Made by a program: the position numbers and the translations under genes | Notes under the pieces: model-generated | Databases searched by the model: none | Seen by the model: the letters and a program-made list of their open reading frames with translations, nothing else | What the model was told of the DNA's origin: nothing | Shown here: positions 3,892-43,825 of the stretch, one piece after another | How positions within the stretch are numbered: position 1 is the stretch's first letter | Layout: every line of letters begins with the position of its first letter | Assembly: GCA_010365135.1 (NCBI GenBank) | Contig: JAAFGY010000001.1 | Coordinates: 11,419-75,418, forward strand | From: Flavobacterium sp. | Lineage (GTDB): Bacteria > Bacteroidota > Bacteroidia > Flavobacteriales > Flavobacteriaceae | Reading direction: 5' to 3' | DNA length: 64,000 bases

Positions 3892-5031
3892 ATGATTAAT
3901 AAAAGGCTTTTGATTAAAAATCTCCTTGCTCACAATGATGAGAGTAGTTTTTATGACAAAAAACGCCAGTTGAATTTGCATTCGCGCGAAGGGAAAGCCA
4001 AGTTTTTGAAACATATTTGCGCCTTATCCAACTCGAATCCTACCAATAGTTCCTATATCGTTGTGGGTGTCGAAGATCACGATAACGAAATTGTAGGCGA
4101 CGATTTTTTTGACGACAGTCGGATTCAGAATTTAGTAAATGCTTATTTGGAAAATCCACCAAAAATTCAATACGAGAATGTTCCTTTTCCTAATTTGCCA
4201 AAAGATAAAGTGGTGGGATTAGTAACTATAAAAGCCAAAAGTAAAACCTCACATTTTAAAAAAGGAATTCACACGATTCCCGCCAACACTGTTTTTATTC
4301 GTCGAGGCAGCAACACCGTTCCTACTGAAGAGGAAATCGAAAAAAATTATCAAAACACGGAAACCGTCATTGGCATTGAAAATAATTCAAGAAATAGTAT
4401 TGGTTACACTCTCGATGGTGTGATTGATTTTATGAATTTTCGGCACAAGGATATGGCGCCAAAATACAAGGTTTTCAAGGAATTATTTGTCATTTGTTGG
4501 GCTGGTGTTCCTAAAAAATCTAGAGACAAAACCTTTCTATCACGTGTTGATATTGAGTTAATAAACGAGCAAATCAAACTGTTTTATTCGGCTCAAGATG
4601 TAGTCACGATTACTTTTGACGAGGATTCTTTTACGATTATCGAATATGTTCCTTTGGGTTTGAATGACAAAACAAGCTTTTATCCGTTAGAAAAACAAAC
4701 CATTTATTTTCACGATAATGGCTATTATAAAATTGACCGAGAAATCCTTTTTCAGCCGCCAGAATTCAATCGAAAAATGTTGTTTCATATTTATAATTCG
4801 AACATTTCCTTGTTGAACAAACTTCAAAAAGGACTTTCGTTAACGGAGCGAGAACAGAAAGATTTAGAAAATTTACCCTCGACATTTATGATTTGTTGCC
4901 TCAACGGATTTGAAGAAGCCAAGCAAAAATTGATAGACGCCAAACCACTTTTGAAACCTTTCACTTCTGTATATTTGTCCTTTAAAGAAGCTTTGCGGAT
5001 TTTGAGAAAAATGAAGTATGATGTGCAATAA
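3892..5031 (+). CDS. Schlafen/AlbA_2-domain protein with uncharacterised C-terminal region
   Basis: ESSFYDKK, KHICALSN, YIVVGVED N-terminal pattern of AlbA_2. Confidence 0.7.
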   Translation: MINKRLLIKNLLAHNDESSFYDKKRQLNLHSREGKAKFLKHICALSNSNPTNSSYIVVGVEDHDNEIVGDDFFDDSRIQNLVNAYLENPPKIQYENVPFPNLPKDKVVGLVTIKAKSKTSHFKKGIHTIPANTVFIRRGSNTVPTEEEIEKNYQNTETVIGIENNSRNSIGYTLDGVIDFMNFRHKDMAPKYKVFKELFVICWAGVPKKSRDKTFLSRVDIELINEQIKLFYSAQDVVTITFDEDSFTIIEYVPLGLNDKTSFYPLEKQTIYFHDNGYYKIDREILFQPPEFNRKMLFHIYNSNISLLNKLQKGLSLTEREQKDLENLPSTFMICCLNGFEEAKQKLIDAKPLLKPFTSVYLSFKEALRILRKMKYDVQ

Positions 5032-5157
5032 AGAGTTCATTCGAAAGACCACTAACTATCTTATTAGTTGAAAATCGGATGAAAAAATGTCAAAAAATTA
5101 AAAAAACCATTTGTTTTCTACTATTTTTGCACTATCATAAATTGATATAAATACTAA

Positions 5158-5883
5158 ATGAGAACACTCGTTATCGGTGACATTCACGGTGGTTTGCGTG
5201 CTTTGCACCAAATTATGGAAAGAGCCAAAGTTACCCAAAAAGATACCTTAATATTTCTAGGTGATTATGTTGATGGCTGGAGCCAATCGCCCCAAGTGAT
5301 TGATTATTTGATCGATTTGAAAACAACTCACAATTGCATTTTCATCATTGGCAATCACGATCAATTGTTGTTGAAATGGTTAGACGAAAGCATTGATAAT
5401 CCAATGTGGTACAAACACGGCGGCGAATCGACCGTTTTGGCGTATGACCAAACCAGTGGCGAAAGCATCCAAAAACACATTAAATTTCTCAAATCATTGA
5501 AAGAATATTATCTCGATGAGCAAAATCGTTTATTTGTTCACGCAGGTTTTACCAATATGAACGGTGTGATTTATGAATATTTTCCGGAACTTTTTTATTG
5601 GGACAGAACCTTGTGGGAAACCGCATTGGCATTGGATAAAAAGCTGAAAAATAGCGATTTACTGTATCCAAAACGATTGACATTATACGAAGAAATTTAC
5701 ATTGGTCACACGCCTGTTTCAAGAATTGGCAAATCCACCCCAGTAAAAATGGGCAACGTATGGAATATTGATACAGGAGCTGCTTTTAAAGGGCCTTTAA
5801 CTATTTTGGATGTGGACACTAAAGAGTTTTGGCAGAGCGAACCTTTACCGAATTTGTACCCAAGTGAAAAAGGTAGAAATTAA
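5158..5883 (+). CDS. Calcineurin-like metallophosphoesterase (PrpA/ApaH-like)
   Basis: GDIHG, GDYVD, GNHD, HAG, GHTP, IDTGA motifs. Confidence 0.9.
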   Translation: MRTLVIGDIHGGLRALHQIMERAKVTQKDTLIFLGDYVDGWSQSPQVIDYLIDLKTTHNCIFIIGNHDQLLLKWLDESIDNPMWYKHGGESTVLAYDQTSGESIQKHIKFLKSLKEYYLDEQNRLFVHAGFTNMNGVIYEYFPELFYWDRTLWETALALDKKLKNSDLLYPKRLTLYEEIYIGHTPVSRIGKSTPVKMGNVWNIDTGAAFKGPLTILDVDTKEFWQSEPLPNLYPSEKGRN

Positions 5884-5889
5884 AACCAC

Positions 5890-5897
5890 TATATTTG
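5890..5897 (+). promoter_or_regulatory. Bacteroidota sigma-A -7 element
   Basis: TATATTTG matches TAnnTTTG, 17 nt before the ATG at 5915. Confidence 0.55.
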
Positions 5898-5914
5898 CAA
5901 AAAAAATATACACT

Positions 5915-6406
5915 ATGAAAAAGATTTTTACAATCGTATTATTAGGAGCATTTTGTTTGGTAAATGCACAAGCTTTTAAAGGAAAAGGAGATACAAAACT
6001 CGACATTGGGGCGACGCTTCAAAATGGTGGAACTGGAGTTGTAGCTTCAGCAGATTTTGGTTTGGGAGAAAACTTTTCAATCGGGGTTTTGAGTTCTTAT
6101 TTACTTGGAGCTAATGAGTACTTAGGCGAAAAACCAAGTGTTGATTATCGTTTTGATGCCAAATTAAGATTTAATGCCAATTTAGGAAATGTATTAAATG
6201 TTTCTCCTAAATTTGATTTGTATCCCGGTTTGAATATAGGTTTGAAAAACTTTGGTGGTCATATTGGCGCAAGGTATTTTTTCACGGATGGTTTTGGAGT
6301 TTTTACTGAGTTTTCAGCTCCATTTGCAAAATACGATAAGGAAGCCTCTTCAAGATACAACAATGGAACTTCTTTTAATATTGGAGCTTCGTTCAATTTA
6401 GACTAA
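5915..6406 (+). CDS. Small outer-membrane beta-barrel protein (DUF6646-like)
   Basis: Signal peptide MKKIF...NAQ from ATG 5915 (the track start at 5810 overlaps the upstream gene); alternating beta strands; ends GASFNLD. Confidence 0.75.
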   Translation: MKKIFTIVLLGAFCLVNAQAFKGKGDTKLDIGATLQNGGTGVVASADFGLGENFSIGVLSSYLLGANEYLGEKPSVDYRFDAKLRFNANLGNVLNVSPKFDLYPGLNIGLKNFGGHIGARYFFTDGFGVFTEFSAPFAKYDKEASSRYNNGTSFNIGASFNLD

Positions 6407-6421
6407 TCAATCAAAACAAAT

Positions 6422-6457
6422 AAAAAGCGGCTCGATGAAAATCTTGCCGCTTTTTTT
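6422..6457. terminator. Bidirectional intrinsic terminator
   Basis: AAAAAGCGGC...GCCGCTTTTTTT between convergent genes. Confidence 0.7.
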
Positions 6458-6471
6458 ATGGATCAGATTTT

Positions 6472-8019
6472 TTACAAATCGAATTTTATTCCTTGTGCCA
6501 ATGGCAATTGCGTTCCGTAATTGATCGTGTTGGTTTGTCTTCGCATATATGCTTTCCAAGCATCGGAACCGGATTCTCGTCCGCCACCGGTTTCTTTTTC
6601 TCCGCCAAAAGCACCTCCAATTTCGGCTCCAGAAGTTCCAATATTAACATTAGCAATACCACAATCGGAACCCGATTGCGAAAGGAATAATTCCATTTCA
6701 CGCATATTATTGGTGAAAATCGAAGACGAAAGTCCTTGTGGAACTCCGTTTTGCATCGCAATGGCTTCTTCAATTTTGCTGTATTTCATCACATACAAAA
6801 TAGGCGCAAAAGTTTCTGTTTGTACAATATCAAAATGATTTTCGGCTTCAATAATACACGGTTTTACATAACATCCGCTTTCGAAACCTTGGCCTTCAAC
6901 AACGCCGCCTTCAACAACAATCGTTGCTCCTTCTTTTTTGGCTTTTTCAATAGCATCCAAATATTCCTGAACGGCTCCTTTGTCGATAAGTGGTCCAACG
7001 TGGTTGTTTTCGTCCAATGGATTTCCGATTTTCAATTGAGAATAAGCATTTTTCAAAACGCTGATGGTTTTTTCATACACACTTTCGTGAATGATTAAAC
7101 GACGAGTCGAAGTACAACGTTGTCCTGCGGTTCCAACAGCGCCAAAAACAGCGCCAACCAAAACCATACTAATATCAGCGTGTTCCGAAACAATAATGGC
7201 ATTATTTCCGCCCAATTCTAGAATCGTATTTCCAAAACGTTCGGCAACAGTTTTGGATACGTGACGTCCAATTCGGGTTGATCCTGTAAAAGAAACCAAG
7301 GAAATTCTGTGGTCATTATTGATTAAATCACCCGATTCATTTCCAGTTACCAAGCAACTTACCCCTTCGGGAACATTATTTCTTTCGAGAACGGTTTTGA
7401 TAATATTTTGGCAAGCAATGCCACATAACGGTACTTTTGAACTGGGTTTCCAAATCGCAACATCGCCACAAACAAAGGCTATCATGGCGTTCCAACTCCA
7501 AACGGCAACCGGAAAATTAAATGCTGAAATAATTCCAACAGTTCCAATCGGGTGGTATTGCTCATACATTCGGTGCAGTGGACGTTCAGAATGCATGGTT
7601 AATCCGTATAATTGGCGCGATAATCCTACTGCAAAATCACAAATATCAATCATTTCCTGAACTTCGCCATAGCCTTCCTGAAGACTTTTGCCCATTTCGT
7701 AAGAAACTAATTTTCCTAATGGTTCTTTAAATTTTCTTAGCTCGTCTCCCATTTGGCGCACAATTTCACCTCTTCTTGGAGCAGGAATCATTCGCCATTC
7801 TAGGAAAGCTTCGGTTGCTTTTTGCATCGCTTTTTCGTAATCATCTTTGGTCGAAGTTTTTACTTTTGCGATTAAAGCTCCATCGGCTGGCGAATAGCTT
7901 TCGATGATTTTTCCGTTAGCAAAATGATTTGCTCCTGTCGAAGTCCCGTCATTTAGGGCTTCGATGCCCAATTGTTTTAGGGCTATTTCTATTCCGAATG
8001 AATTGGCTATTGTTGTCAT
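6472..8019 (-). CDS. Aldehyde dehydrogenase, ALDH7/piperideine-6-carboxylate dehydrogenase type
   Basis: ISAFNFP, FTGSTRIG, LELGGN, GQRCT, ETFAP, SGSDAWKAYMRRQT motifs. Confidence 0.9.
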   Translation of the reverse strand: MTTIANSFGIEIALKQLGIEALNDGTSTGANHFANGKIIESYSPADGALIAKVKTSTKDDYEKAMQKATEAFLEWRMIPAPRRGEIVRQMGDELRKFKEPLGKLVSYEMGKSLQEGYGEVQEMIDICDFAVGLSRQLYGLTMHSERPLHRMYEQYHPIGTVGIISAFNFPVAVWSWNAMIAFVCGDVAIWKPSSKVPLCGIACQNIIKTVLERNNVPEGVSCLVTGNESGDLINNDHRISLVSFTGSTRIGRHVSKTVAERFGNTILELGGNNAIIVSEHADISMVLVGAVFGAVGTAGQRCTSTRRLIIHESVYEKTISVLKNAYSQLKIGNPLDENNHVGPLIDKGAVQEYLDAIEKAKKEGATIVVEGGVVEGQGFESGCYVKPCIIEAENHFDIVQTETFAPILYVMKYSKIEEAIAMQNGVPQGLSSSIFTNNMREMELFLSQSGSDCGIANVNIGTSGAEIGGAFGGEKETGGGRESGSDAWKAYMRRQTNTINYGTQLPLAQGIKFDL

Positions 8020-32675: not shown

Positions 32676-33533
32676 TTAAAGAATTTCATCACAACTAAAT
32701 ACCTCTTTCAACCGAACACCTCTTTCCGTTTTTTCGACCGTGATGATTTGATGGTGAGCATCGTGTTCCAAAAATAAATAATAATTATTCTCGGCTGCAG
32801 CAGTAAGAAATTTAGTTTTTTCAGGCATTGTCAACAGGGGTCTGGTGTCGTAACCCATCACATACGGAATGGGAATGTGTCCGGCTGTGGCCAATAAATC
32901 TGCACAAAAAACAATCGTTTTATCCTGGTATTGAATGTGCGGAATCATCATTTTTTCGGTGTGACCGTTTACAAAGAAAACCCCAAAATCGAGTTCCGAT
33001 TTTTCGACAAAATCACCTTCAGGTAAGTGTATAAAATTCAATTGTCCGCTTTCTTCAATGGGCAAAATATTTTCTGAAAGGAAGGAAGCTTTTTCGCGAA
33101 GATTGGGTTTTGTAGCCCATTCCCAATGGTTTTCGTTGGTCCAATATTTGGCATTTTTAAACGCAATTTCATAGCCCGTTTTGTCCTTGTTCCATTGCAC
33201 ACTTCCACCACAATGATCAAAATGAAGGTGTGTCAAAAAAACATCAGTAATATCATCACGGTGAAAACCGTATTTGGCCAACGAATTATCCAAAGAATGT
33301 GTTCCCCAAAGTGAATAATAGCCAAAAAACTTCTCGGATTGTTTATCTCCCATTCCGTTATCAATCAAAATAAGACGATTTCCATCTTCGATGAGCAAAC
33401 ATCTTGCAGCAAGATCAATTAAATTTTTTTCGTCGGCTGGATTGGTTTTGTTCCAAATTGTCTTTGGGACAACGCCAAACATTGCGCCACCATCAAGCTT
33501 AAAATTTCCAGTTTCGATAGGATATAATTTCAT
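32676..33533 (-). CDS. MBL-fold metallo-hydrolase (YtnP-like)
   Basis: FKLDGGAMFGVVP; THLHFDHCGG; start MKLYPIETG at 33533. Confidence 0.9.
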   Translation of the reverse strand: MKLYPIETGNFKLDGGAMFGVVPKTIWNKTNPADEKNLIDLAARCLLIEDGNRLILIDNGMGDKQSEKFFGYYSLWGTHSLDNSLAKYGFHRDDITDVFLTHLHFDHCGGSVQWNKDKTGYEIAFKNAKYWTNENHWEWATKPNLREKASFLSENILPIEESGQLNFIHLPEGDFVEKSELDFGVFFVNGHTEKMMIPHIQYQDKTIVFCADLLATAGHIPIPYVMGYDTRPLLTMPEKTKFLTAAAENNYYLFLEHDAHHQIITVEKTERGVRLKEVFSCDEIL

Positions 33534-33641
33534 AAATTGTTTTGTGTAATCAATAGGAAACAAAGTTAGGAAATACATTTACTTATAAACGAAGGCAAAT
33601 CAACTTTTTCTATCCCGTTATAGTTATAATAATGTTATATG

Positions 33642-33673
33642 TTTGACAAAAAGCATTAAATGTAATATCTTTG
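33642..33673 (+). promoter_or_regulatory. Complete sigma-A promoter of the suf cluster
   Basis: TTTG (33642-45), 20-nt spacer, TATCTTTG (33666-73). Confidence 0.72.
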
Positions 33674-33677
33674 CCCT

Positions 33678-33700
33678 TTATTTAGACAAATTCTACATAA
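33678..33700. promoter_or_regulatory. Candidate palindromic operator upstream of sufA
   Basis: TTATTTAGA-CAAAT-TCTACATAA; matches the site before sufS. Confidence 0.6.
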
Positions 33701-33703
33701 GCT

Positions 33704-34033
33704 ATGATTAAAGTTTCTGATACTGCCAAAAAGAAAATCATCGATTTAATGAAAGACGATGGTTTCGATGCTGCAATAGATTACGTGAGAGTAGGCGTAA
33801 AAAGTGGTGGATGCTCCGGATTGTCTTACGATTTAAAGTTTGACAAAAACAAAGGCCAAGACGATAAAATTTTTGTGGACAACGATATAACAATTGCCGT
33901 GGAGAAAAAATCATTCCTCTACTTAGCCGGAACAATTCTCGAATTTTCTGGAGGATTAAACGGAAAAGGGTTTGTTTTCAATAACCCCAATGCGAGCAGA
34001 ACTTGTGGATGCGGAGAGAGTTTCTCACTTTAA
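33704..34033 (+). CDS. sufA: A-type Fe-S carrier (SufA/IscA, HesB family)
   Basis: SGGCSGLSY and CGCGESF motifs. Confidence 0.9.
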   Translation: MIKVSDTAKKKIIDLMKDDGFDAAIDYVRVGVKSGGCSGLSYDLKFDKNKGQDDKIFVDNDITIAVEKKSFLYLAGTILEFSGGLNGKGFVFNNPNASRTCGCGESFSL

Positions 34034-34034
34034 A

Positions 34035-34117
34035 ATTAAATGATTGAAAAATTTAAAGATTTAAAGAGCTTCTAGCAGTTTAATTTTTCAATTTTTCAAT
34101 TTTTAAATCTTTTAATA
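34035..34117. repeat. Octamer-periodic inverted array between sufA and sufB
   Basis: Left arm ATTAAATG ATTGAAAA ATTTAAAG ATTTAAAG; complementary TTTCAAT/TTTAAAT units on the right. Confidence 0.7.
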
Positions 34118-34129
34118 TTAAAAAAGAAT

Positions 34130-35578
34130 ATGTCAAAATACACCGAAGACCATTTACGAGTTGAACTCGAAAGCAAAGAATACGAGTACGGATTTTATAC
34201 AGATATAGAGTCGGATACTTTCCCCATTGGTTTGAACGAGGACATTGTTCGGGCCATTTCCCACCGAAAAGAAGAACCGCAATGGATGACGGATTGGCGC
34301 ATCGAAGCTTTTCGCGCTTGGGAAAATATGATGGAGCCAGAATGGGCGAATGTTCAATATATAAAACCCGATTTTCAAGCTATTTCCTATTATTCAGCAC
34401 CAAAGAAAATCGATCCCAGTAAATCATTAGACGACGTCGATCCTGAACTTTTAGAAATGTACAAAAAGTTAGGAATATCTGTAGATGAACAAAAAATGAT
34501 GAATAATGTGGCAATGGATATTGTCGTCGATTCGGTTTCAGTAGCGACGACATTTAAAAAAACATTAGGCGAGAAAGGTATTATTTTTATGAGTATTTCC
34601 GAAGCCATTAAGGAACATCCTGAATTAGTCCGAAAACATCTTGGAACTGTTGTGCCTCAAAAAGATAATTTTTATGCAGCATTAAATTCAGCTGTTTTTT
34701 CTGATGGAAGTTTCTGTTATATTCCAAAAGGCATTCGCTGTCCAATGGAACTTTCCACTTATTTTCGTATCAATCAGGCAGGAACTGGACAGTTTGAAAG
34801 AACATTACTTATTGCTGACGAAGGTAGTTATGTTTCATATCTTGAAGGCTGTACCGCGCCAAGTCGCGACGAAAATCAGTTGCACGCAGCAGTTGTTGAA
34901 CTTATCGCAATGGACGGTGCGGAAATTAAATATTCAACCGTTCAAAACTGGTATCCTGGAAACAAGGAAGGAAAGGGTGGCGTTTTTAATTTTGTGACCA
35001 AAAGAGGCTTGTGCGAGAAAAACGCAAAAATTTCTTGGACACAAGTCGAAACAGGTTCTGCCGTAACGTGGAAATATCCTTCTTGTATATTGAAAGGCGA
35101 TAATTCTGTTGGTGAATTTTATTCAATTGCCGTTACCAATAATTTCCAGCAAGCCGATACCGGAACCAAGATGATTCACCTTGGAAAAAACACCAAATCA
35201 ACGATTATTTCTAAAGGAATCTCGGCAGGTAAGTCACACAATAGTTATCGAGGATTAGTAAAAGTTGGTCCCAATGCAGATAATGCAAGGAATTTTTCAC
35301 AATGCGATTCGCTGTTGATGGGAAATAATTGCAGCGCCAATACTTTTCCCTACATCGAAAGCAAAAATCCATCGGCCAAAATAGAGCACGAAGCTACGAC
35401 GAGTAAAATTGGCGAAGACCAAGTTTTCTATTGCAACCAACGAGGAATTCCAACCGAAAAAGCCATCGCCTTAATCGTAAATGGTTTTAGTAAAGACGTT
35501 TTGAACAAATTGCCCATGGAATTTGCCGTGGAAGCCCAGAAATTATTGGAAATATCTTTAGAAGGTTCTGTTGGATAA
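34130..35578 (+). CDS. sufB: Fe-S cluster assembly protein SufB
   Basis: [45 protein letters not shown] motifs. Confidence 0.98.
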
Positions 35579-35618
35579 TTTTTGTAAATTTGAAGAAACA
35601 ATGTAAATTAAGATTGTT

Positions 35619-35813
35619 ATGGAACTCATTTTAAAAAACGTTAAGAAAAAAGATTTACCTGTACTGAAATCTTTGGCAAAATCATTGGGTTTTGAAATTG
35701 AAAAAGAAGAAAAACCGTATAATCCAGAATTTGTAAAAGAAATTTTGGAGGCTGAACAAAGCATCAAAGATGGAAAAGGAGTTAAAATCAAATTAGAAGA
35801 TTTGTGGAAGTAA
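35619..35813 (+). CDS. Putative antitoxin (DUF2683-like)
   Basis: 64 aa; EKPYNPEFVKEILEAE...LEDLWK; overlaps the toxin start by 10 nt. Confidence 0.75.
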   Translation: MELILKNVKKKDLPVLKSLAKSLGFEIEKEEKPYNPEFVKEILEAEQSIKDGKGVKIKLEDLWK

Positions 35814-36076
35814 TTTATTCAGAAAAAGCTCAAAAAGATAGAGATTTTTGGAAAAAATCTGGAAATAAAGCAATAATGAATAAAATATCTGCTTTAATTA
35901 AAGATATTACCTTGCATCCTTTTGAAGGAATTGGAAAACCCGAGCCTTTAAAATATCATTTGACTGGTCGTTGGTCAAGAAGAATTAATCACGAACATCG
36001 GATTATTTATAAAGTTACCGAAAAAAACACAATTGAGATATTAGACATTTTATCATTAAAAGGGCATTACGAATAA
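35804..36076 (+). CDS. yoeB: Txe/YoeB-family toxin (GTG start)
   Basis: PFEGIGKPEPLKY, WSRRINHEHRIIY, C-terminal KGHYE. Confidence 0.93.
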   Translation: MEVIYSEKAQKDRDFWKKSGNKAIMNKISALIKDITLHPFEGIGKPEPLKYHLTGRWSRRINHEHRIIYKVTEKNTIEILDILSLKGHYE

Positions 36077-36083
36077 TTTTTTA

Positions 36084-36572
36084 ATGAAAAACACAACAGT
36101 AATCATCGTAGGAACTTCTCGAAACAACGGAAATACCACAAAAATAGCCGCTGAAATTGCAAATCAATATGCTATTGATGTAATTAATTTGAATGATTAT
36201 CAATTTTCATATTATGATTATGAAGGCAAAAATAGAGACGATGATTTTCAACCTTTAATAAAATCGATAATAGAAAAATACGACACTGTAATTTTTGCCA
36301 CACCCAATTATTGGTATAATATGAGTGGGATTATGAAGGTTTTTTTCGATAGATGTACAGATATAATTCTAATCGAAAAAGAGACCGGAAAAAGTCTTAA
36401 AGGAAAAAAATGTGCCGTGATTTCAAATTCTCATACAGATGAAATGGAGTCAGACTTTTATATTCCTTTTCGAAAATCGGCCGAATATTTAGGAATGAAA
36501 TACATAGGAAATGCTCATTTTAACGCAGATAAATTTAACCTAAAAGATAAAATAGAATTAGCTTTTATATAA
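36084..36572 (+). CDS. Flavodoxin-family protein / NADPH-dependent FMN reductase
   Basis: GTSRNNGNT and ATPNYWYNMSGIMKVFFDR motifs. Confidence 0.85.
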   Translation: MKNTTVIIVGTSRNNGNTTKIAAEIANQYAIDVINLNDYQFSYYDYEGKNRDDDFQPLIKSIIEKYDTVIFATPNYWYNMSGIMKVFFDRCTDIILIEKETGKSLKGKKCAVISNSHTDEMESDFYIPFRKSAEYLGMKYIGNAHFNADKFNLKDKIELAFI

Positions 36573-36583
36573 AATAAAAAACA

Positions 36584-37339
36584 ATGTTATCAATAAAAAA
36601 TCTACACGCCTCTATTGGAGGAGATAAAGAAATATTAAAAGGAATTAACCTTGAAGTTAAAGCGGGAGAAATCCATGCGATTATGGGGCCAAATGGTGCC
36701 GGAAAAAGTACTCTTGCTTCAATTATTGCGGGAAACGAAAACTACGAAGTGACCCAGGGAGAAATCTTTTTGGACGGCGAAGATATTTCAGAATTGGCCC
36801 CCGAAGAAAGAGCCCACAAAGGGGTTTTCCTTTCGTTCCAATATCCTGTTGAAATTCCTGGAGTTTCGGTAACCAACTTTATGAGAACGGCAATCAACGA
36901 AACTCGTAAGGCCAATAAACTCGAAGAAATGCCAGCAAATGAAATGCTGAAATTCATTCGCGAAAAATCGGAATTACTGGAAATTGACCGTAAATTTTTG
37001 TCTCGTTCGTTAAATGAAGGGTTTTCTGGTGGCGAGAAAAAACGCAACGAAATTTTCCAAATGGCAATGCTAGAACCAAAACTCGCCATCCTTGACGAAA
37101 CCGATTCTGGATTAGATATTGATGCTTTGAGAATCGTTGCCAATGGTGTAAACAAACTCAAAAGTGACAAAAACGCCATCATCGTAATCACGCATTACCA
37201 AAGACTTTTGGACTATATTGTTCCTAATTTTGTTCACGTTTTATACAATGGAAAAATTGTAAAATCCGGAGGAAAAGAATTGGCTTACGAACTCGAAGAA
37301 AAAGGTTACGACTGGATTAAACAAGAACAAGAAGCTTAA
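36584..37339 (+). CDS. sufC: Fe-S cluster assembly ATPase SufC
   Basis: [41 protein letters not shown] motifs. Confidence 0.97.
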
Positions 37340-37343
37340 AAAT

Positions 37344-37373
37344 AGTCGAAAGTCGCAAGTCATAAAGTCAAAA
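37344..37373 (+). repeat. Left heptamer arm (AGTC family) of the four-helix-bundle cassette
   Basis: AGTC at 37344, 37351, 37358, 37366. Confidence 0.75.
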
Positions 37374-37385
37374 GAAAAAAATGGG

Positions 37386-37753
37386 ATGGGTAAATTTAGT
37401 TCTTTCGAAGAAATTAATTCTTGGCAAAAATCAAGGATATTCAACAAAAGAATATATCTAATTACAGAAACATCAAGTTTTAAAAAAGACTTTGATTTTG
37501 TTAGACAAATTAGACGAGCATCAATTTCAATATCATCAAATATAGCTGAAGGTTTTGAAAGAAATACAGATAAAGAGTTTGTATACTTTTTATATGTTGC
37601 AAAAGCTTCTGCGGGGGAAGTTAGCCCCAATTATATTTGGCATACGATTTAGAATACATAACAAAAGAAGATTTCGAAATATTATTAGAATCAGTAACAG
37701 AAATATCAAAATTGTTAAGTGGTTTTATAAAATATTTGAGTCTAAAGTCATAA
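37386..37753 (+). pseudogene. Four-helix-bundle protein (IVS-protein family) with a 1-nt frameshift
   Basis: DFVRQIRRASISISSNIAEGFER and YVAKASAGEV in one frame; QLYLAYDLEYITKEDFEILLESVTEISKLLSGFIKYLSLKS-stop(37753) continues in another frame from about 37625. Confidence 0.82.
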
Positions 37754-37768
37754 AGTAATTTTGCTTTT

Positions 37769-37844
37769 GACTTTCAGACTTGTAATAAACAAAATAGTTG
37801 ACAATCTTGAGTCTTTTGACTTTTGACATTCGACTTTAAGACTT
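37769..37844 (+). repeat. Right heptamer arm (GACT family) of the four-helix-bundle cassette
   Basis: GACT at 37769 and 37777; GAC at 37818, 37825, 37832, 37840. Confidence 0.75.
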
Positions 37845-37851
37845 AAATATA

Positions 37852-39168
37852 ATGGAATTGAAAGAAAAATTACTATCGTCTTTTATGGCTTTTGAAGAGC
37901 AAGTGGATGTTCATTCCGAACTTCACAATGTGCGAACTGAGGCTTTAAAAAACTTTGAAAATAAAGGTTTCCCCACCAAAAAAGAGGAATCTTGGAAATA
38001 TACTTCGCTAAATGCCATCTTAAAAAATGACTTCACGGTATTTCCAAAGGACGAATTGACGATCGAATTCAGGGATGTAAAAAAATATTTTATCCACGAA
38101 ATCGACACTTACAAAGTGGTTTTTGTTGACGGCGTTTTTAGCTCGCATTTGTCTTCGACTACACACGAAGGAGTAGATATTTGTTTGATGTCATCGGCAT
38201 TGCACAAGCCCAAATACAAAATGGTTATCGACAATTATTTTAATAAAATTGCTAGTAAAGACGAGAGTTTAACGACATTGAATACGGCTTTTGCCAATGA
38301 AGGAGCCTATATTAACATCCCGAAAAGTACTGTAGTTCGAAAACCTATTGAGATTATGTATTTCTCGACAGGCAACGAAGCGGCTCTTATGGTTCAACCT
38401 CGAAATTTAATAATTGTTGGAGAAAATTCTCATGTTCAAATCATCGAAAGACATCAAAGTTTGAACGAAAATCCAGTTTTGACCAATTCAGTTACTGAGA
38501 TTTTTGCCCAAAAACGCGCCATCGTCGATTTCTATAAAATCCAAAACGACAATCATGAAGCCAATTTAATTGATAATACTTACGTTTCCCAAAAACAAGA
38601 AAGCCACGTTTCAGTTCACACTTTCTCTTTTGGAGGAAATTTGACTAGAAACAATTTGAATTTCTATCATTTTGGAGAAAGATTGACTAGCACACTTAAC
38701 GGAATTACGATTATTGGAGACAAACAACACGTAGATCATTATACTTTAGTACATCACGCCGCGCCAAATTGCGAAAGCTTTCAAGATTATAAAGGCATTT
38801 TTTCGGACAATTCTACGGGTGTTTTCAACGGAAAAGTTTATGTCGAAAAAGAAGCTCAAAAAACCAATGCTTTCCAAAAAAGCAACAACATTTTGTTGGG
38901 CGATAGATCAACAATAAATGCAAAACCACAATTAGAAATTTTTGCCGATGACGTTAAATGTTCGCACGGTTGCACGGTAGGACAACTCGATGAAACTGCT
39001 ATGTTCTATATGCAATCCCGAGGAATTCCTAAGAAAGAAGCTAAAGCCTTATTGATGTACGCGTTTTCAAATGCGGTTATCGAAAGCATCAAAATCCCAG
39101 AATTGAAACAACGAATTACCAAAATCATCGCTTTGAAATTAGGTGTGAAATTGGGATTTGATTTGTAG
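37852..39168 (+). CDS. sufD: Fe-S cluster assembly protein SufD
   Basis: FPTKKEESWKYT, LNTAFANEG, KPQLEIFADDVKCSHGCTVG motifs. Confidence 0.96.
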   Translation: MELKEKLLSSFMAFEEQVDVHSELHNVRTEALKNFENKGFPTKKEESWKYTSLNAILKNDFTVFPKDELTIEFRDVKKYFIHEIDTYKVVFVDGVFSSHLSSTTHEGVDICLMSSALHKPKYKMVIDNYFNKIASKDESLTTLNTAFANEGAYINIPKSTVVRKPIEIMYFSTGNEAALMVQPRNLIIVGENSHVQIIERHQSLNENPVLTNSVTEIFAQKRAIVDFYKIQNDNHEANLIDNTYVSQKQESHVSVHTFSFGGNLTRNNLNFYHFGERLTSTLNGITIIGDKQHVDHYTLVHHAAPNCESFQDYKGIFSDNSTGVFNGKVYVEKEAQKTNAFQKSNNILLGDRSTINAKPQLEIFADDVKCSHGCTVGQLDETAMFYMQSRGIPKKEAKALLMYAFSNAVIESIKIPELKQRITKIIALKLGVKLGFDL

Positions 39169-39210
39169 TTTTTAAATACAACGTTTCAAAGGTTTACGAA
39201 CGGATGAACT

Positions 39211-39278
39211 AAAAGGCGCACAATTTAATAATAACAAACTTTGCGCCCTTTTCGATTTTCTTTGTGTGCTTTGTGGTT
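39211..39278. repeat. Degenerate 9-mer inverted array (CTTTGYG family)
   Basis: AAAAGGCGCA.../...TGCGCCCTTTT, then CTTTGTGTG CTTTGTGGTT. Confidence 0.5.
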
Positions 39279-39282
39279 TAGT

Positions 39283-40629
39283 TTACCTCTTTAAACTTTT
39301 AACAATCCCACTCAACAACCTATTAAAATCAAAATCAGGAGCTTCTGTTAAACCCATTCGCACGATTACTAAATCATGGCTTGGGAAAATGGCAACCATT
39401 TGGCCTTGATATCCGCTGCAATACAACATATCTTTAGGAACATCAGCAAATTTTCCGCCGGCATTGAGCCAAAAATGAGCTCCATATTTCCCGTTTGAAG
39501 TATTGGTCGGTGTAGCGACATATTTTGCCCAATTTGTGTCAAATAGTTGCTCGCCGTTCCAATTGCCTTTGTGCAAATACAGTAATCCAAATTTTGCCCA
39601 ATCACGCGTCGTTGCCCAACCGTACGAGGAACCTACATAATTTCCAGCCATATCCGTTTCCACTATCATCGAATTCATTCCAATTTTATCAATCAAGGCC
39701 GAATACCAAAAATCTAAATATTCCTGATGCGTTTTGAATTGTTTTAGCAAAATTCCGGACAATAAATTGGTCGTTCCGGAGGAATAATTCCAATGGGAAT
39801 TGGGTTTGAATTGCGCCGGTTTTTTCAATTGAGACTGGCTCATATCTTCCGCTTGAAAAAGCATTTGAGTGGCATCACAAATTTTGGTATAATCTTCTTC
39901 CCATTCCAAACCGCTGTTCATATTGAGCAAATTGGCGATGGTGATTTTGGAGCGTTCATCATTTGCCCATTCGGTAATTGGAGCAGGTTTAAAAACATCT
40001 AATTTGCCTTGTTTTTGCATAATTCCATAGATAGTTGCCGTAATACTTTTAGTCATTGACCAGCCCAAAATTTTGGAGTTTTTATTGAAACCCGTGTCGT
40101 ATTTCTCGGCAATAATTTTGTCTTTGTAAATAACCAAAACAGCACGAGTTCTTTTACTTTTTTGGTCTTTTACGTCAAAAGCATTGGCAACAGCCGCATT
40201 CAGTTTTGTGTAATCAATGTTGGCAAAAAAAGTGTCTTTTGGCTCGTTATTTCCATAGGGAAAAGGTAAATTGTTGCTGATTTTGGTTCTTTTTGGAACT
40301 TCATACGGTTTTGAAATATCAAAAGCATCGTTGATTAAAGTTGCCCCTAAACCTTCTCTGTAAATGGCTTTCCGTTCTTTTAAACCATAAACCGAACTAG
40401 TGACAAATTTTCCGTTTTCGTTAATTTTGTTTTTCGCCAAAGTAATCATCTTGATATCATTGTCTCCTGTCTCAATTATATCTTGCGAACGATGATCTAT
40501 AAAATGTCCCGAAGCCATACTTTTGGCCGAAAAACCTGAGATTAAATCCAGCTTTGGATACGTGGTGTAGCCAAAATAAATTAGGAATAACAAAACGACA
40601 AGACCAAGAATTTTGAATATTTTTTTCAT
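39283..40629 (-). CDS. Serine hydrolase (beta-lactamase class C-like), membrane-anchored
   Basis: WSMTKS (SxxK), WNYSSG (YxS), GYQGQ motifs; N-terminal TM segment. Confidence 0.88.
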   Translation of the reverse strand: MKKIFKILGLVVLLFLIYFGYTTYPKLDLISGFSAKSMASGHFIDHRSQDIIETGDNDIKMITLAKNKINENGKFVTSSVYGLKERKAIYREGLGATLINDAFDISKPYEVPKRTKISNNLPFPYGNNEPKDTFFANIDYTKLNAAVANAFDVKDQKSKRTRAVLVIYKDKIIAEKYDTGFNKNSKILGWSMTKSITATIYGIMQKQGKLDVFKPAPITEWANDERSKITIANLLNMNSGLEWEEDYTKICDATQMLFQAEDMSQSQLKKPAQFKPNSHWNYSSGTTNLLSGILLKQFKTHQEYLDFWYSALIDKIGMNSMIVETDMAGNYVGSSYGWATTRDWAKFGLLYLHKGNWNGEQLFDTNWAKYVATPTNTSNGKYGAHFWLNAGGKFADVPKDMLYCSGYQGQMVAIFPSHDLVIVRMGLTEAPDFDFNRLLSGIVKSLKR

Positions 40630-40744
40630 TTGAAGCGAAATTTTGACCAATTTAGCAAAAATAGCATAGAGAAATCATATTTTGTTATAAATTAATACTG
40701 TTAAAAATTGTAAAATCTTGCTATTGAAACCCACCTATATTCAC

Positions 40745-40773
40745 TACTTTTGTATTTAGAATTTTTCTAAATA
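40745..40773 (+). promoter_or_regulatory. sufS -7 element immediately followed by a palindromic operator
   Basis: TACTTTTG (40745-52), then TATTTAGA-ATTTT-TCTAAATA (40753-73). Confidence 0.65.
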
Positions 40774-40778
40774 ACAAA

Positions 40779-41993
40779 ATGTTAGATATAAATAAAATTA
40801 GAGCCGATTTTCCAATACTTTCAAGAACTGTAAACGGAAAACCATTGGTATATTTTGATAATGGAGCCACCAATCAAAAGCCGCAAATAGTAATTGATGC
40901 GATTGCCAAATATTACCAGGAAATCAATGCCAATATCCATCGCGGCGTGCATACTTTGAGCCAATTAGCCACCGATGCTTATGAAGTTTCGCGTGGTAAA
41001 ATTCAAAATCATATCCATGCAAAATTCGCCCACGAAGTGATTTTTACATCGGGAACAACGCACGGAATTAACGCCGTTGCGAATGGTTTTGCTTCGCTAC
41101 TACAAGCTGGCGACGAAGTTTTGGTTTCGGCAATGGAACATCACAGCAATATTGTGCCTTGGCAAATGTTGTGTGAGAAAACTGGGGCGATTTTGAAAGT
41201 GATTCCAATGAATGAAAACGGCGAGTTGATTCTTAGCGAATTCGATAAATTATTGTCGGATAAAACAAAAGTCGTGACGGTAAATCATATTTCTAACGCT
41301 TTGGGAACCATCAATCCCATCAAATATATCATTGACAAAGCACACGAATTTGGAGCAGCGATTTTAATTGATGGAGCGCAAGCCGTTCCGCATTTGAAGC
41401 CCGATGTCCAGGAATTAGATTGTGATTTTTATGTTTTTTCTGGTCATAAAATGTGTGGGCCAACGGGAACAGGAATTTTATACGGAAAAGAAGATTGGCT
41501 TAATAAATTACCTCCTTATCAAGGTGGTGGTGAGATGATAAAAGAAGTGACTTTCAAGAAAACTACTTATGCCGATTTGCCACACAAATTTGAAGCGGGA
41601 ACGCCAAATATTGCTGGAGGAATTGTTTTGGGAACAGCCGTTGATTATTTGAATTCCGTTGGTTTTGAGAACATTCAACAACAGGAAACAGAATTGGTAG
41701 AATACGCAACGAAACGATTATTGGAAATTGAAGGTTTGAAAATTTTTGGCACAGCCAAAGAAAAAACATCGGTGATTTCGTTTAATGTTGGCGAAATTCA
41801 TCCGTATGACATTGGAACAATTATAGACAAGTTAGGAATAGCCGTACGAACCGGACATCATTGCACGCAACCTATTATGGATTATTTCAAAATTCCGGGA
41901 ACAATTCGCGCATCGTTTTCGTTTTATAATACCAAAGAAGAAATTGACGTTATGGTCGAAGCGGTTAAAAAAGCGCAATTAATGTTGTCTTAA
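40779..41993 (+). CDS. sufS: Cysteine desulfurase SufS
   Basis: YFDNGAT, EHHSNIVPW, FSGHKM (PLP Lys), RTGHHC motifs. Confidence 0.96.
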   Translation: MLDINKIRADFPILSRTVNGKPLVYFDNGATNQKPQIVIDAIAKYYQEINANIHRGVHTLSQLATDAYEVSRGKIQNHIHAKFAHEVIFTSGTTHGINAVANGFASLLQAGDEVLVSAMEHHSNIVPWQMLCEKTGAILKVIPMNENGELILSEFDKLLSDKTKVVTVNHISNALGTINPIKYIIDKAHEFGAAILIDGAQAVPHLKPDVQELDCDFYVFSGHKMCGPTGTGILYGKEDWLNKLPPYQGGGEMIKEVTFKKTTYADLPHKFEAGTPNIAGGIVLGTAVDYLNSVGFENIQQQETELVEYATKRLLEIEGLKIFGTAKEKTSVISFNVGEIHPYDIGTIIDKLGIAVRTGHHCTQPIMDYFKIPGTIRASFSFYNTKEEIDVMVEAVKKAQLMLS

Positions 41994-42003
41994 AAATAAA
42001 AAA

Positions 42004-42438
42004 ATGAAACTATTTACCATGATTTTTCTAAGTATTTTTCTTGGCAAAAGTTGTTCTAGTCAAACCAAAAATGATTTGAAAACAGCTGTTTTGGAATATA
42101 CTGCCAACACCCGAGGTTTTTATCAAAAAATTACGATTCAAGACCAAATGGTTTCCGTTTCGAAAGATAGAAATAGCAATGAAAAGCCGATTGCTACAAA
42201 AATTTCGGATAAAGATTGGAAGGAATTGGTCGGTTATTTTGAAACCATCGAATTGGATAGTTTAGCCACTTTAAAAGCACCAACCGAAAAACGCTTTCAT
42301 GATGGTGCGGCAATCGCCAATTTGAAAGTGGTTTATAAAGACAAGACTTATGAAACCGTAGCTTTCGATCACGGTTTTGCACCAACAGAAATAAAAAAAT
42401 TAGTTGATAAATTAAACACCTTTGCTAAAAAAGAATAA
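42004..42438 (+). CDS. Uncharacterised lipoprotein
   Basis: Lipobox-like GKSC; DGAAIANL...YET..FDHG pattern; stop overlaps the sufE ATG (TAATG). Confidence 0.7.
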   Translation: MKLFTMIFLSIFLGKSCSSQTKNDLKTAVLEYTANTRGFYQKITIQDQMVSVSKDRNSNEKPIATKISDKDWKELVGYFETIELDSLATLKAPTEKRFHDGAAIANLKVVYKDKTYETVAFDHGFAPTEIKKLVDKLNTFAKKE

Positions 42439-42857
42439 TGAGCATTAAAGAAATACAAGAAGAAATAATAGATGAGTTTTCGATGTTTGACGATTGGATG
42501 CAACGTTATGAATACATTATTGATTTAGGGAAAAACTTGCCGTTAATCCAGGAGGAATTCAAAACTGATGATAATATTATTAAAGGTTGCCAGTCGAAAG
42601 TTTGGCTGAAAGGAGAACAAAAAGACGATAAAATAGTCTTCACCGCCGATAGCGATGCAATTTTGACCAAAGGAATAATAGCCATATTAATTCGGGTTTT
42701 TTCAAACCAAAAAGCTTTGGATATTCTCAATGCCGATATGAATTTTATTGATGAAATTGGTTTAAAAGAACATTTATCACCAACACGAGCCAACGGATTG
42801 GTTTCGATGATTAAGAATATAAAAATGTACGCATTGGCTTTCGATGCAAATAAATAA
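42438..42857 (+). CDS. sufE: Cysteine desulfuration protein SufE
   Basis: RYEYIIDLG, IKGCQSKVW, DSDAILTKG, LSPTRANGL motifs. Confidence 0.95.
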   Translation: MSIKEIQEEIIDEFSMFDDWMQRYEYIIDLGKNLPLIQEEFKTDDNIIKGCQSKVWLKGEQKDDKIVFTADSDAILTKGIIAILIRVFSNQKALDILNADMNFIDEIGLKEHLSPTRANGLVSMIKNIKMYALAFDANK

Positions 42858-42874
42858 TAAAAGATCAATAACTT

Positions 42875-42900
42875 GAGATGGCGCCGTGCCTCGCAATGAC
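42875..42900. repeat. Remnant of a REP-like hairpin arm
   Basis: GAGATGGCGCCGTGCCTCGCAATGAC resembles, from memory, Bacteroidota ...CTCGCAATGAC repeats; a related CGTCAGAATGAC tail lies at 8194-8205. Confidence 0.45.
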
Positions 42901-42907
42901 AAAAAAT

Positions 42908-43231
42908 ATGGAAACAAAAATAGACACAAACCAACTAGGAATTGATATCGTGGCAAAACTAAAAACCATCTACGATCCGGAAATTCCCGTTGATATTTAT
43001 GAATTGGGATTGATATATGACGTAATGGTCAGTACCGATTATGAAGTTAAAATCCTGATGACCTTAACTTCCCCAAATTGTCCGGTTGCCGAAAGTTTGC
43101 CAAGAGAAGTGGAAGAAAAAGTAAAATCATTAACTCATGTAAAAGACGCCGAAGTGGAAATCACTTTCGATCCGCCTTGGAGCAAAGATTTGATGAGTGA
43201 AGAAGCAAAATTAGAACTGGGAATGCTTTAA
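42908..43231 (+). CDS. DUF59/SufT-like Fe-S assembly protein
   Basis: IYDPEIPVDIYELGLIY, MTLTSPNCPVAE, TFDPPWS motifs; ATG 42908 preferred. Confidence 0.92.
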   Translation: METKIDTNQLGIDIVAKLKTIYDPEIPVDIYELGLIYDVMVSTDYEVKILMTLTSPNCPVAESLPREVEEKVKSLTHVKDAEVEITFDPPWSKDLMSEEAKLELGML

Positions 43232-43235
43232 TATT

Positions 43236-43316
43236 AGTTGTAAAGTTAGAAAGTCGTAAAGTCTGAAAGATAGCAATTTTATGACATTCGACTTTTGACA
43301 TTCGACTTTAAGACTT
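43236..43316. repeat. Gene-less AGTC/GACT heptamer inverted array
   Basis: Left AAAGTTAG AAAGTCGT AAAGTCTG; right GAC at 43283, 43290, 43297, 43304, 43312; 43290-43316 is identical to 37818-37844. Confidence 0.85.
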
Positions 43317-43321
43317 GAATA

Positions 43322-43825
43322 ATGGAAGAAATTGTAAATAAAGTTGCCAATAGTACTTTGGAGATTTTCGATTTGGAAGATTATTATCCAAAAGGAACTC
43401 GTGCGCAAATTGATATTTCTAAATGGTTTCTGGAAGGTTTCTTGTTGAAAGAAAAAGACTTTCGAGCGCATTTACAGGAACACGATTGGTCCCAATACCA
43501 AGACCAATATGTAGCCATTCATTGCAGTACCGAAGCTATTTTTCCAGCATGGGCTTCCATTTTGGTTGCGATTAAATTATCGCCTTTTGCCAAAAAAATC
43601 GTAAACGGAACTATCGAAGATTTGGATGCTGCTTTATACGAAGAAATCCTTTCTACAATAAATTATTCGGTTTACGAAAACAAAGCTATAATTATAAAAG
43701 GCTGTTCGAAAAAACCTGTTCCAATGCGTGCTTATATTTTGGCTGCCAATTATTTACAACCTTTTGCCAGAAGTATTATGTATGGCGAAGCTTGCTCGGC
43801 AGTGCCTCTTTTTAAGAAAAAATAG
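43322..43825 (+). CDS. DUF2480-family protein
   Basis: EIVNKVANS...FDLEDYYP, LKEKDFR, IKGCS, SIMYGEACSAVPL motifs. Confidence 0.85.
   Translation: MEEIVNKVANSTLEIFDLEDYYPKGTRAQIDISKWFLEGFLLKEKDFRAHLQEHDWSQYQDQYVAIHCSTEAIFPAWASILVAIKLSPFAKKIVNGTIEDLDAALYEEILSTINYSVYENKAIIIKGCSKKPVPMRAYILAANYLQPFARSIMYGEACSAVPLFKKK

Follow-up and report, generated by a model that had tools for sequence, protein, structure and literature searches.

Two palindromes at the suf promoters of a Flavobacterium genome are probable Flavobacteriales-type Fur boxes

Introduction

In Riemerella anatipestifer, a member of the Flavobacteriales, a Fur box with the sequence 5'-ATTTAGAATTATTCTAAAT-3' was derived from Fur-regulated promoters, four of which were tested in gel shifts that backed it (Guo et al. 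2017, PMC5609570). The rhuB promoter of the same species supported the box again, in a study that gives Fe2+ as a requirement for Fur to bind DNA (PMC10986502). The suf genes of R. anatipestifer rose on iron restriction both in the wild type and in a fur mutant (Table 3, PMC5609570). Flavobacterium psychrophilum has a single fur gene, located upstream of purA, and its deletion failed (PMC9331221); the Fe-S assembly genes of this species are induced by peroxide (PMC9723704).

Outside the order, the suf genes of E. coli are an established target of Fur repression (cited in PMC1698941). Irr, which also belongs to the Fur superfamily, binds the iron control element (ICE) in Rhizobiales and Rhodobacterales, and among the members of its regulon are suf, hemA, fumA, nuo, cyc and dps; as of 2006, the ICE had been reported only from alpha-proteobacteria (Rodionov et al. 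2006, PMC1698941).

Here we analyse a 64,000-nucleotide stretch of Flavobacterium DNA, hereafter the window, which carries a suf cluster with a palindrome at each of two promoters. The original prediction took these palindromes to be repressor sites for an iron- or Fe-S-sensing factor of the Fur, Rrf2/IscR or DtxR type. Flavobacteriales Fur boxes and Fur control of suf are already known, and the sites are largely what a specialist would expect. The points of interest are the duplication of the operator on a split operon and the order-wide occurrence of a box, identical in its core to the ICE, before iron-using genes.

Results

The suf genes form two units, each with a palindrome at its promoter

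NCBIfam and Pfam scans of the window gave the following gene order.

33704-39168, + strand: first suf transcription unit, sufA to sufD
33704-34033, + strand: sufA
34130-35578, + strand: sufB
35619-36076, + strand: inserted DUF2683/YoeB pair
36084-36572, + strand: flavodoxin-like gene
36584-37339, + strand: sufC
37386-37652, + strand: small IVP-like ORF
37852-39168, + strand: sufD
39283-40650, - strand: serine-hydrolase gene (beta-lactamase fold), between sufD and sufS
40779-43825, + strand: second suf transcription unit, sufS to DUF2480
40779-41993, + strand: sufS
42004-42438, + strand: 144-aa ORF without an assigned family
42438-42857, + strand: sufE
42878-43231, + strand: FeS_assembly_P (DUF59-type)
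43322-43825, + strand: DUF2480

Because the opposite-strand serine-hydrolase gene separates sufD from sufS, sufS needs a promoter and an operator of its own. The scans found no transcription factor among the ORFs in or beside the suf cluster, in agreement with the original prediction that the cluster encodes no regulator. A divergent 300-aa ORF was considered as a LysR-type regulator and rejected, as it has a metallo-beta-lactamase fold. The serine-hydrolase gene has its own -7 box on the minus strand (TATTTTTG, 40656-40663), and because this box is about 90 bp from the sufS palindrome, the gene is probably outside the control of that site.

The promoter elements and the cores of the two palindromes are as follows.

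33623-33638, + strand: second conserved promoter block, direct repeat GTTATA-N5-GTTAT, just upstream of the sufA -33 element
33642-33645, + strand: sufA promoter -33 TTTG, with a spacer of 20 nt to the -7 box
33666-33673, + strand: sufA promoter -7 box TATCTTTG, of the TAnnTTTG type (Bacteroidetes), kept in relatives
33680-33698, no strand: putative sufA operator core, 19 bp, ATTTAGACAAATTCTACAT; 15/19 to the Riemerella consensus
40724-40726, + strand: possible sufS promoter -33 TTG, with a spacer of 18 nt; inferred from the consensus only
40745-40752, + strand: predicted sufS promoter -7 box TACTTTTG; inferred from the consensus only
40754-40772, no strand: putative sufS operator core, 19 bp, ATTTAGAATTTTTCTAAAT; 18/19 to the Riemerella consensus

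The palindromes read in the sequence as they had been described. The sufA-side palindrome (33679-33699, TATTTAGAcaaatTCTACATA) has a half-site agreement of 7/8 and lies 5 nt downstream of the -7 box, with 4 nt between its end and the sufA ATG at 33704, and the sufS-side palindrome (40753-40773, TATTTAGAattttTCTAAATA) is a perfect 8-N5-8 palindrome that abuts its -7 box directly and ends 5 nt before the sufS ATG at 40779. The 19-bp cores start 6 nt (sufA) and 1 nt (sufS) downstream of the -7 boxes, and their ends are 5-6 nt from the ATGs. When transcription starts are predicted from the -33/-7 consensus of Bacteroidetes promoters (Chen et al. 2007, as cited in PMC5609570), both boxes span the predicted start, as the original prediction expected, and this is the overlap of a repressor that acts by occlusion.

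The genus as a whole keeps the GTTATA-N5-GTTAT block upstream of the sufA -33 element, also in relatives whose leader is rearranged. The copy at 33623-33638 is the sole intergenic one in the genome, and because there is no other, no regulon can be inferred for it. The block lies outside the palindrome and is a candidate activator site; its position suits an activator, perhaps one with a peroxide input. The sufS promoter contains a looser version, GTTATA-N10-GTTAAA, at 40684-40705.

Both cores match the Riemerella Fur box, and the genome encodes one Fur

Both cores are 19-bp inverted repeats matching ATTTAGAATnATTCTAAAT. With the centre base ignored, the sufS core has 1 mismatch and the sufA core has 3 to the Riemerella consensus, and in a 9-1-9 reading the cores are ATTTAGAATtTTTCTAAAT (sufS) and ATTTAGACAaATTCTACAT (sufA). 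It had been stated, correctly, that the sites do not match the enterobacterial Fur box; this is no argument against Fur, because the Flavobacteriales use a Fur-box variant of their own.

Exactly one gene of the Fur family is present in the genome (C79:7614-8069), directly downstream of a relA/spoT gene. The closest solved relatives of its product are true Fur/Mur proteins (4raz, 5fd5), and alignment to them shows that the metal-site residues are kept. The recognition helix, SRATLYNTIELL, shows essentially no variation among 30 orthologues drawn from many families of the order. Riemerella Fur is 55% identical overall to the Fur of this genome, with the helix SKATIYNSIE against SRATLYNTIE here. 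Because the recognition helices are near-identical, it is reasonable to transfer the Riemerella box to the Flavobacterium genome. The helix of the order, ATLYNTIE (Fur orthologues L068-L097 and L117), carries Asn where the closest solved Fur proteins carry Arg (ATVYRT), and we take this position to be the Fur/PerR specificity switch of Bacillus. The Asn could account for a TTAGAA half-site instead of GATAAT.

The sequence analysis shows the box match, the presence of a Fur gene, the conservation of its recognition helix, and the over-representation and conserved position of the box, whereas binding by Fur, the start sites and the direction in which iron acts are inferred. Taken together, we conclude that both palindromes are probably Flavobacteriales-type Fur boxes through which iron-loaded Fur would repress both suf units. 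The original call of a repressor site for an iron-sensing factor is therefore supported and, on sequence grounds, can be narrowed to Fur by the box match, the single Fur, the helix and the position. Of the three candidates it listed, the first, Fur, is retained on box match and helix, and a DtxR-like factor finds no support.

The third candidate was an Rrf2-family repressor (IscR-, SufR- or RirA-like) that senses Fe-S clusters, is encoded elsewhere in the genome and binds the palindromes. Six Rrf2 genes are present in the genome, IscR-type control of suf is common, and one of the six stands at the head of a second suf cluster on contig C134. However, the operator of that Rrf2-headed cluster is different, a tandem ATATATACTnTTTAGTATAGATTAA x2, and the cluster in the window has no Rrf2 gene linked to it, whereas an IscR/Rrf2-controlled operon would be expected to have such a gene or an IscR-type operator. 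The two sites, moreover, match a box that has been validated for Fur, in the 9-1-9, 19-bp layout typical of the Fur family. We consider Rrf2 control very unlikely.

Contig C134 (7.7 kb) carries, on its minus strand, the Rrf2 gene (6605-7069), a sufA-like gene (6232-6558), a ferredoxin gene (5780-6133) and sufB (4270-5718), followed by sufC, sufD and sufS. Its SufB is 75% identical to the SufB of the window. Either the cluster represents a second operon under IscR-like control, or the contig is a contaminant; the contamination estimate for the assembly is 2.5%.

Recognition by another factor, such as a homologue of the MerR-like MliR or an uncharacterised regulator, is a further alternative. 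Deletion of mliR in the flavobacterium Bizionia lowers the transcripts for Fe-S assembly and iron uptake, but MliR has no known motif, its authors suggest an activator, and the effect on Fe-S assembly genes may be indirect. In addition, MerR-type sites sit in the promoter spacer and not downstream of the -7 box. We give this alternative very little credence and retain Fur as the probable factor at both sites.

Genome-wide counts single out the sufS site

No further copy of the pattern was present in the window at ≤3 mismatches, as the original prediction had also reported. A shuffle test of the window at this threshold gave 2 sites against 1.3 expected and has no power. Because the window test was uninformative, we used counts over the whole assembly (3.64 Mb, 239 contigs, 34.8% GC) and composition-matched palindromes. 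At ≤1 mismatch to the 16-position pattern of the original prediction, the two suf sites are the only ones in the genome. Counts of the 19-bp box at ≤1, ≤2 and ≤3 mismatches were 1, 5 and 33, whereas 150 composition-matched palindromes gave 0.05, 2.0 and 23.9 on average, and the sufS site is the sole one at ≤1 mismatch.

Enrichment within this genome alone is weak, and this counts against the Fur assignment. The sufA site, with 3 mismatches, is not significant genome-wide by itself (33 such sites against about 24 expected). By our estimate, the chance of such a site falling in the same slot of about 12 positions between -7 box and ATG is about 1e-4. The sufA site counts because of its position in this slot and the conservation of the slot in relatives.

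The boxes are conserved at suf within the genus and in other families

Among 61 genomes of the genus, 45 had a site at ≤1 mismatch, compared with 4 for a reversed control. In other families, 12 Fur-bearing genomes had 57 sites at ≤2 mismatches, compared with 8 for the control. Four Fur-less genomes of one family (f10) had 0 sites; the control also gave 0 in these genomes, a fetched piece of their DNA has 53% GC, and the absence of sites may come from composition.

At sufS, many species of the genus carry the exact 19-mer 4-6 nt upstream of a 404-aa sufS gene. The sufS box lies 1-2 kb beyond the sufD match in G005, G006, G013, G014, G019 and G020, and at several genus loci an opposite-strand ORF of about 450 aa adjoins it. 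Because this arrangement recurs, we conclude that the operon split and the second operator are old in the genus.

At sufA, most members of the genus have (T/A)ATTTAGACAAAATCAAAATAA directly after the -7 box. These boxes are mostly weak, with a good left half, a poorer right half and 4-5 mismatches, which counts against the Fur assignment; the sufA box in the window, with 3, is better than most genus copies. The slot 4-8 nt before the sufA ATG contains a box in the genus as well as in families f6, f12 and f16. In several other families, the boxes in this position have 2-3 mismatches. That of f12 (...TACTTTTGcggcagATTTAGATTAATTATAAATaactATG) sits in DNA of 48% GC. No box was found at sufA in the remaining other families compared, and family f4 has a 1-mismatch box about 85 nt before sufB.

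In four relatives with large genomes of 5.3-5.7 Mb (L009, L010, L012 and L014), all that follows the -7 box is AGACAATTTC, which is what remains of the Fur box, and sufA comes after a further leader of about 110 nt. This suggests that the subgroup has a different, possibly leader-based, control of suf.

The palindromes could also act as RNA, in which case a hairpin in the 5' leader by the start codon would control translation or mRNA stability. The folding energy is -6.7 kcal/mol for the sufS leader (z = -3.75) and -2.5 kcal/mol for that of sufA (z = -2.07). Stems of these energies are weak, however, and the full stem would not be transcribed, because the predicted start lies inside the left arm. 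Relatives keep the sequence (ATTTAGAC...TC) with an unpaired position and show no compensatory changes, and elsewhere the same 19-mer lies far from start codons, with 45-165 nt between it and the gene that follows, or in the gap between divergent genes. No Rfam family matched in 33000-41200. An RNA role is, in our judgement, hardly credible, and we return to the palindromes as DNA sites for Fur.

The suf response of R. anatipestifer also counts against Fur control, since its fur mutant is the only one studied in the Flavobacteriales and its suf genes responded to iron independently of Fur. We located a complete R. anatipestifer chromosome (L115) via its rhuB box. The sufA promoter there has the right half-site only (...TATTTTTGttggcgaaaatcATTCTAAATaaacacaATG), and the best full match has 5 mismatches. 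The perfect right half-site, ATTCTAAAT, lies 7 nt before the sufA ATG, in the homologous slot, and the left half has decayed. Because only a half-site remains, a suf response without Fur is expected in Riemerella and is no guide to genomes that carry a full box. The response does show that suf in this order also receives iron-responsive inputs of another kind.

The box stands before iron-using genes and its core is identical to the ICE

We fetched 30 genus loci around sites at ≤1 mismatch, one per genome (L038-L067), and 11 of these were at sufS, the locus of the window included. The other targets, and the sites in this genome listed alongside the ICE-identical core, are as follows.

Genus target, 6 genomes: hemA, with a divergent AraC-type gene
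Genus target, 3 genomes: multihaem cytochrome c of the alternative-complex-III type, with a divergent SPOR gene
Further genus targets: nqrA; class I Fe-S fumarase; nuoA; another multihaem cytochrome
Further genus targets: TonB-dependent receptor; thioredoxin/AhpC-like gene
C154:1645; C205:22591; C126:2084: sites in this genome

In this genome, the multihaem cytochrome c box is present with 2 mismatches, a second site with 2 mismatches is 160 nt upstream of dps, and a third overlaps the start of a CDF-type cation efflux gene. The hemA, nuoA and TonB-dependent receptor homologues of this genome lack good boxes (best 5-7 mismatches), and fumarase and nqrA gave no match in the assembly at the chosen cut-off. 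The top box matches in this genome include no TonB-dependent receptor, which counts against the Fur assignment. The genome scan that the original prediction proposed, with hits expected before iron genes, was thus borne out in part: dps, the multihaem cytochrome c and the CDF efflux gene are the few additions in this genome, where over-representation is weak, and a clear iron-related set recurs at the genus level.

The core of the box, TTTAGAA-N3-TTCTAAA, is letter for letter the ICE consensus. We did not find a parallel between the Flavobacteriales Fur box and the ICE described in the literature searched. The genus target set is rich in iron-using genes, which is counter-intuitive for simple repression by iron-loaded Fur, and because many of the targets use iron the sign of regulation could differ.

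One form that such a difference could take is that the same Fur works with opposite logic, either binding at low iron like Irr or apo-Fur (for which Helicobacter and Campylobacter are precedents) and shutting iron-consuming genes, suf among them, so as to spare iron, or activating some genes when loaded with iron. The identity of the core to the ICE and the parallel between the Irr regulon and the genus target set fit this logic, as does the repression of suf by Irr at low iron in Rhizobium (PMC1698941). The protein in this genome, however, keeps the metal-site residues of Fur and is closest to true Fur/Mur, and Riemerella Fur needs Fe2+ on the same box. Moreover, iron restriction raises suf in Riemerella and peroxide does so in F. 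psychrophilum, and activation by Fur is not possible from a site over the start point. We regard the opposite logic as unlikely and prefer repression by iron-loaded Fur.

A separate question is what the ICE-identical core says about the Fur of the order. We advance only tentatively, and with some doubt, that Flavobacteriales Fur may have an Irr-like DNA specificity via the Asn of its helix and may directly govern iron-consuming functions (Fe-S assembly, haem synthesis, Fe-S fumarase, complex I and cytochromes) together with uptake genes. If true, this would be a direct, protein-only iron-sparing circuit; we know of no RyhB-like small RNA in the phylum. It would also mean either convergent evolution or a specificity that is older in the Fur superfamily than the 2006 view of the ICE as confined to alpha-proteobacteria.

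Discussion

The mechanism that we propose follows the logic of E. coli, which is the most economical reading and agrees with the need of Riemerella Fur for metal, with the increase of suf under iron restriction in Riemerella and with the induction of Fe-S assembly genes by peroxide in F. psychrophilum. When iron is sufficient, a Fur dimer loaded with Fe2+ would bind each 19-bp inverted repeat. Each repeat covers roughly -3 to +20, right after the -7 box and over the predicted start, and because this is the classic position for occlusion we read the sites as repressor sites. Bound Fur would block RNA polymerase and keep sufA-B-C-D and sufS-E low. A drop in iron, or oxidation of Fe2+ by peroxide, would cause Fur to leave, and both units would be derepressed together.

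The two palindromes provide a concrete candidate operator for iron control of Fe-S assembly in Flavobacterium, a genus in which no Fur box had been defined before. They suggest that a split operon can keep co-regulation by duplicating its operator. The Riemerella Fur box is extended to much of the order, where its targets are largely iron-using genes, and the ICE-identical core offers a lead on iron sparing in Bacteroidota and on the evolution of DNA specificity in the Fur superfamily.

Comparison with known systems

The locus is most readily compared with the Fur-regulated promoters of R. anatipestifer. Both have the same 19-bp inverted repeat, within 100 bp of the ATG and behind a promoter of the -33/-7 type, and the two organisms belong to the same order, have one Fur each and share near-identical recognition helices. 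They differ in that the validated targets in R. anatipestifer are haem and iron uptake receptors, whereas the best sites in the present genome are at suf.

The proposed control resembles that of E. coli sufABCDSE, in which a Fur dimer that senses iron occupies the suf promoter and is released on iron starvation or oxidative stress. An extra upstream activator site may be a further likeness, with GTTATA-N5-GTTAT as the candidate here. In contrast, the box sequence is GATAATGATAATCATTATC in E. coli and of the Flavobacteriales type here, the promoter type differs as well, and the Flavobacterium operon is split, with two operators and no linked input of the IscR type seen.

The PerR box of Bacillus subtilis is TTATAATnATTATAA, a 7-1-7 inverted repeat. 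Like the suf boxes, it is an inverted repeat about a single central base, and the PerR helix has ...YN... as does the Flavobacterium protein, compared with ...YR... in classical Fur. The half-site sequence is different, however, and the Flavobacterium protein is the only Fur-family member encoded in its genome. We treat the likeness to PerR as a lead only.

A further comparison is with Irr and the ICE. Irr senses haem and is active at low iron, whereas the Flavobacterium protein is, judged by its sequence, a Fur with a metal site, nearest to 4raz and 5fd5, and we do not file it as an Irr. Nevertheless, the core motif is identical, Irr is also a member of the Fur superfamily, and the targets overlap at suf, hemA, class I fumarase, nuo, cytochromes and dps.
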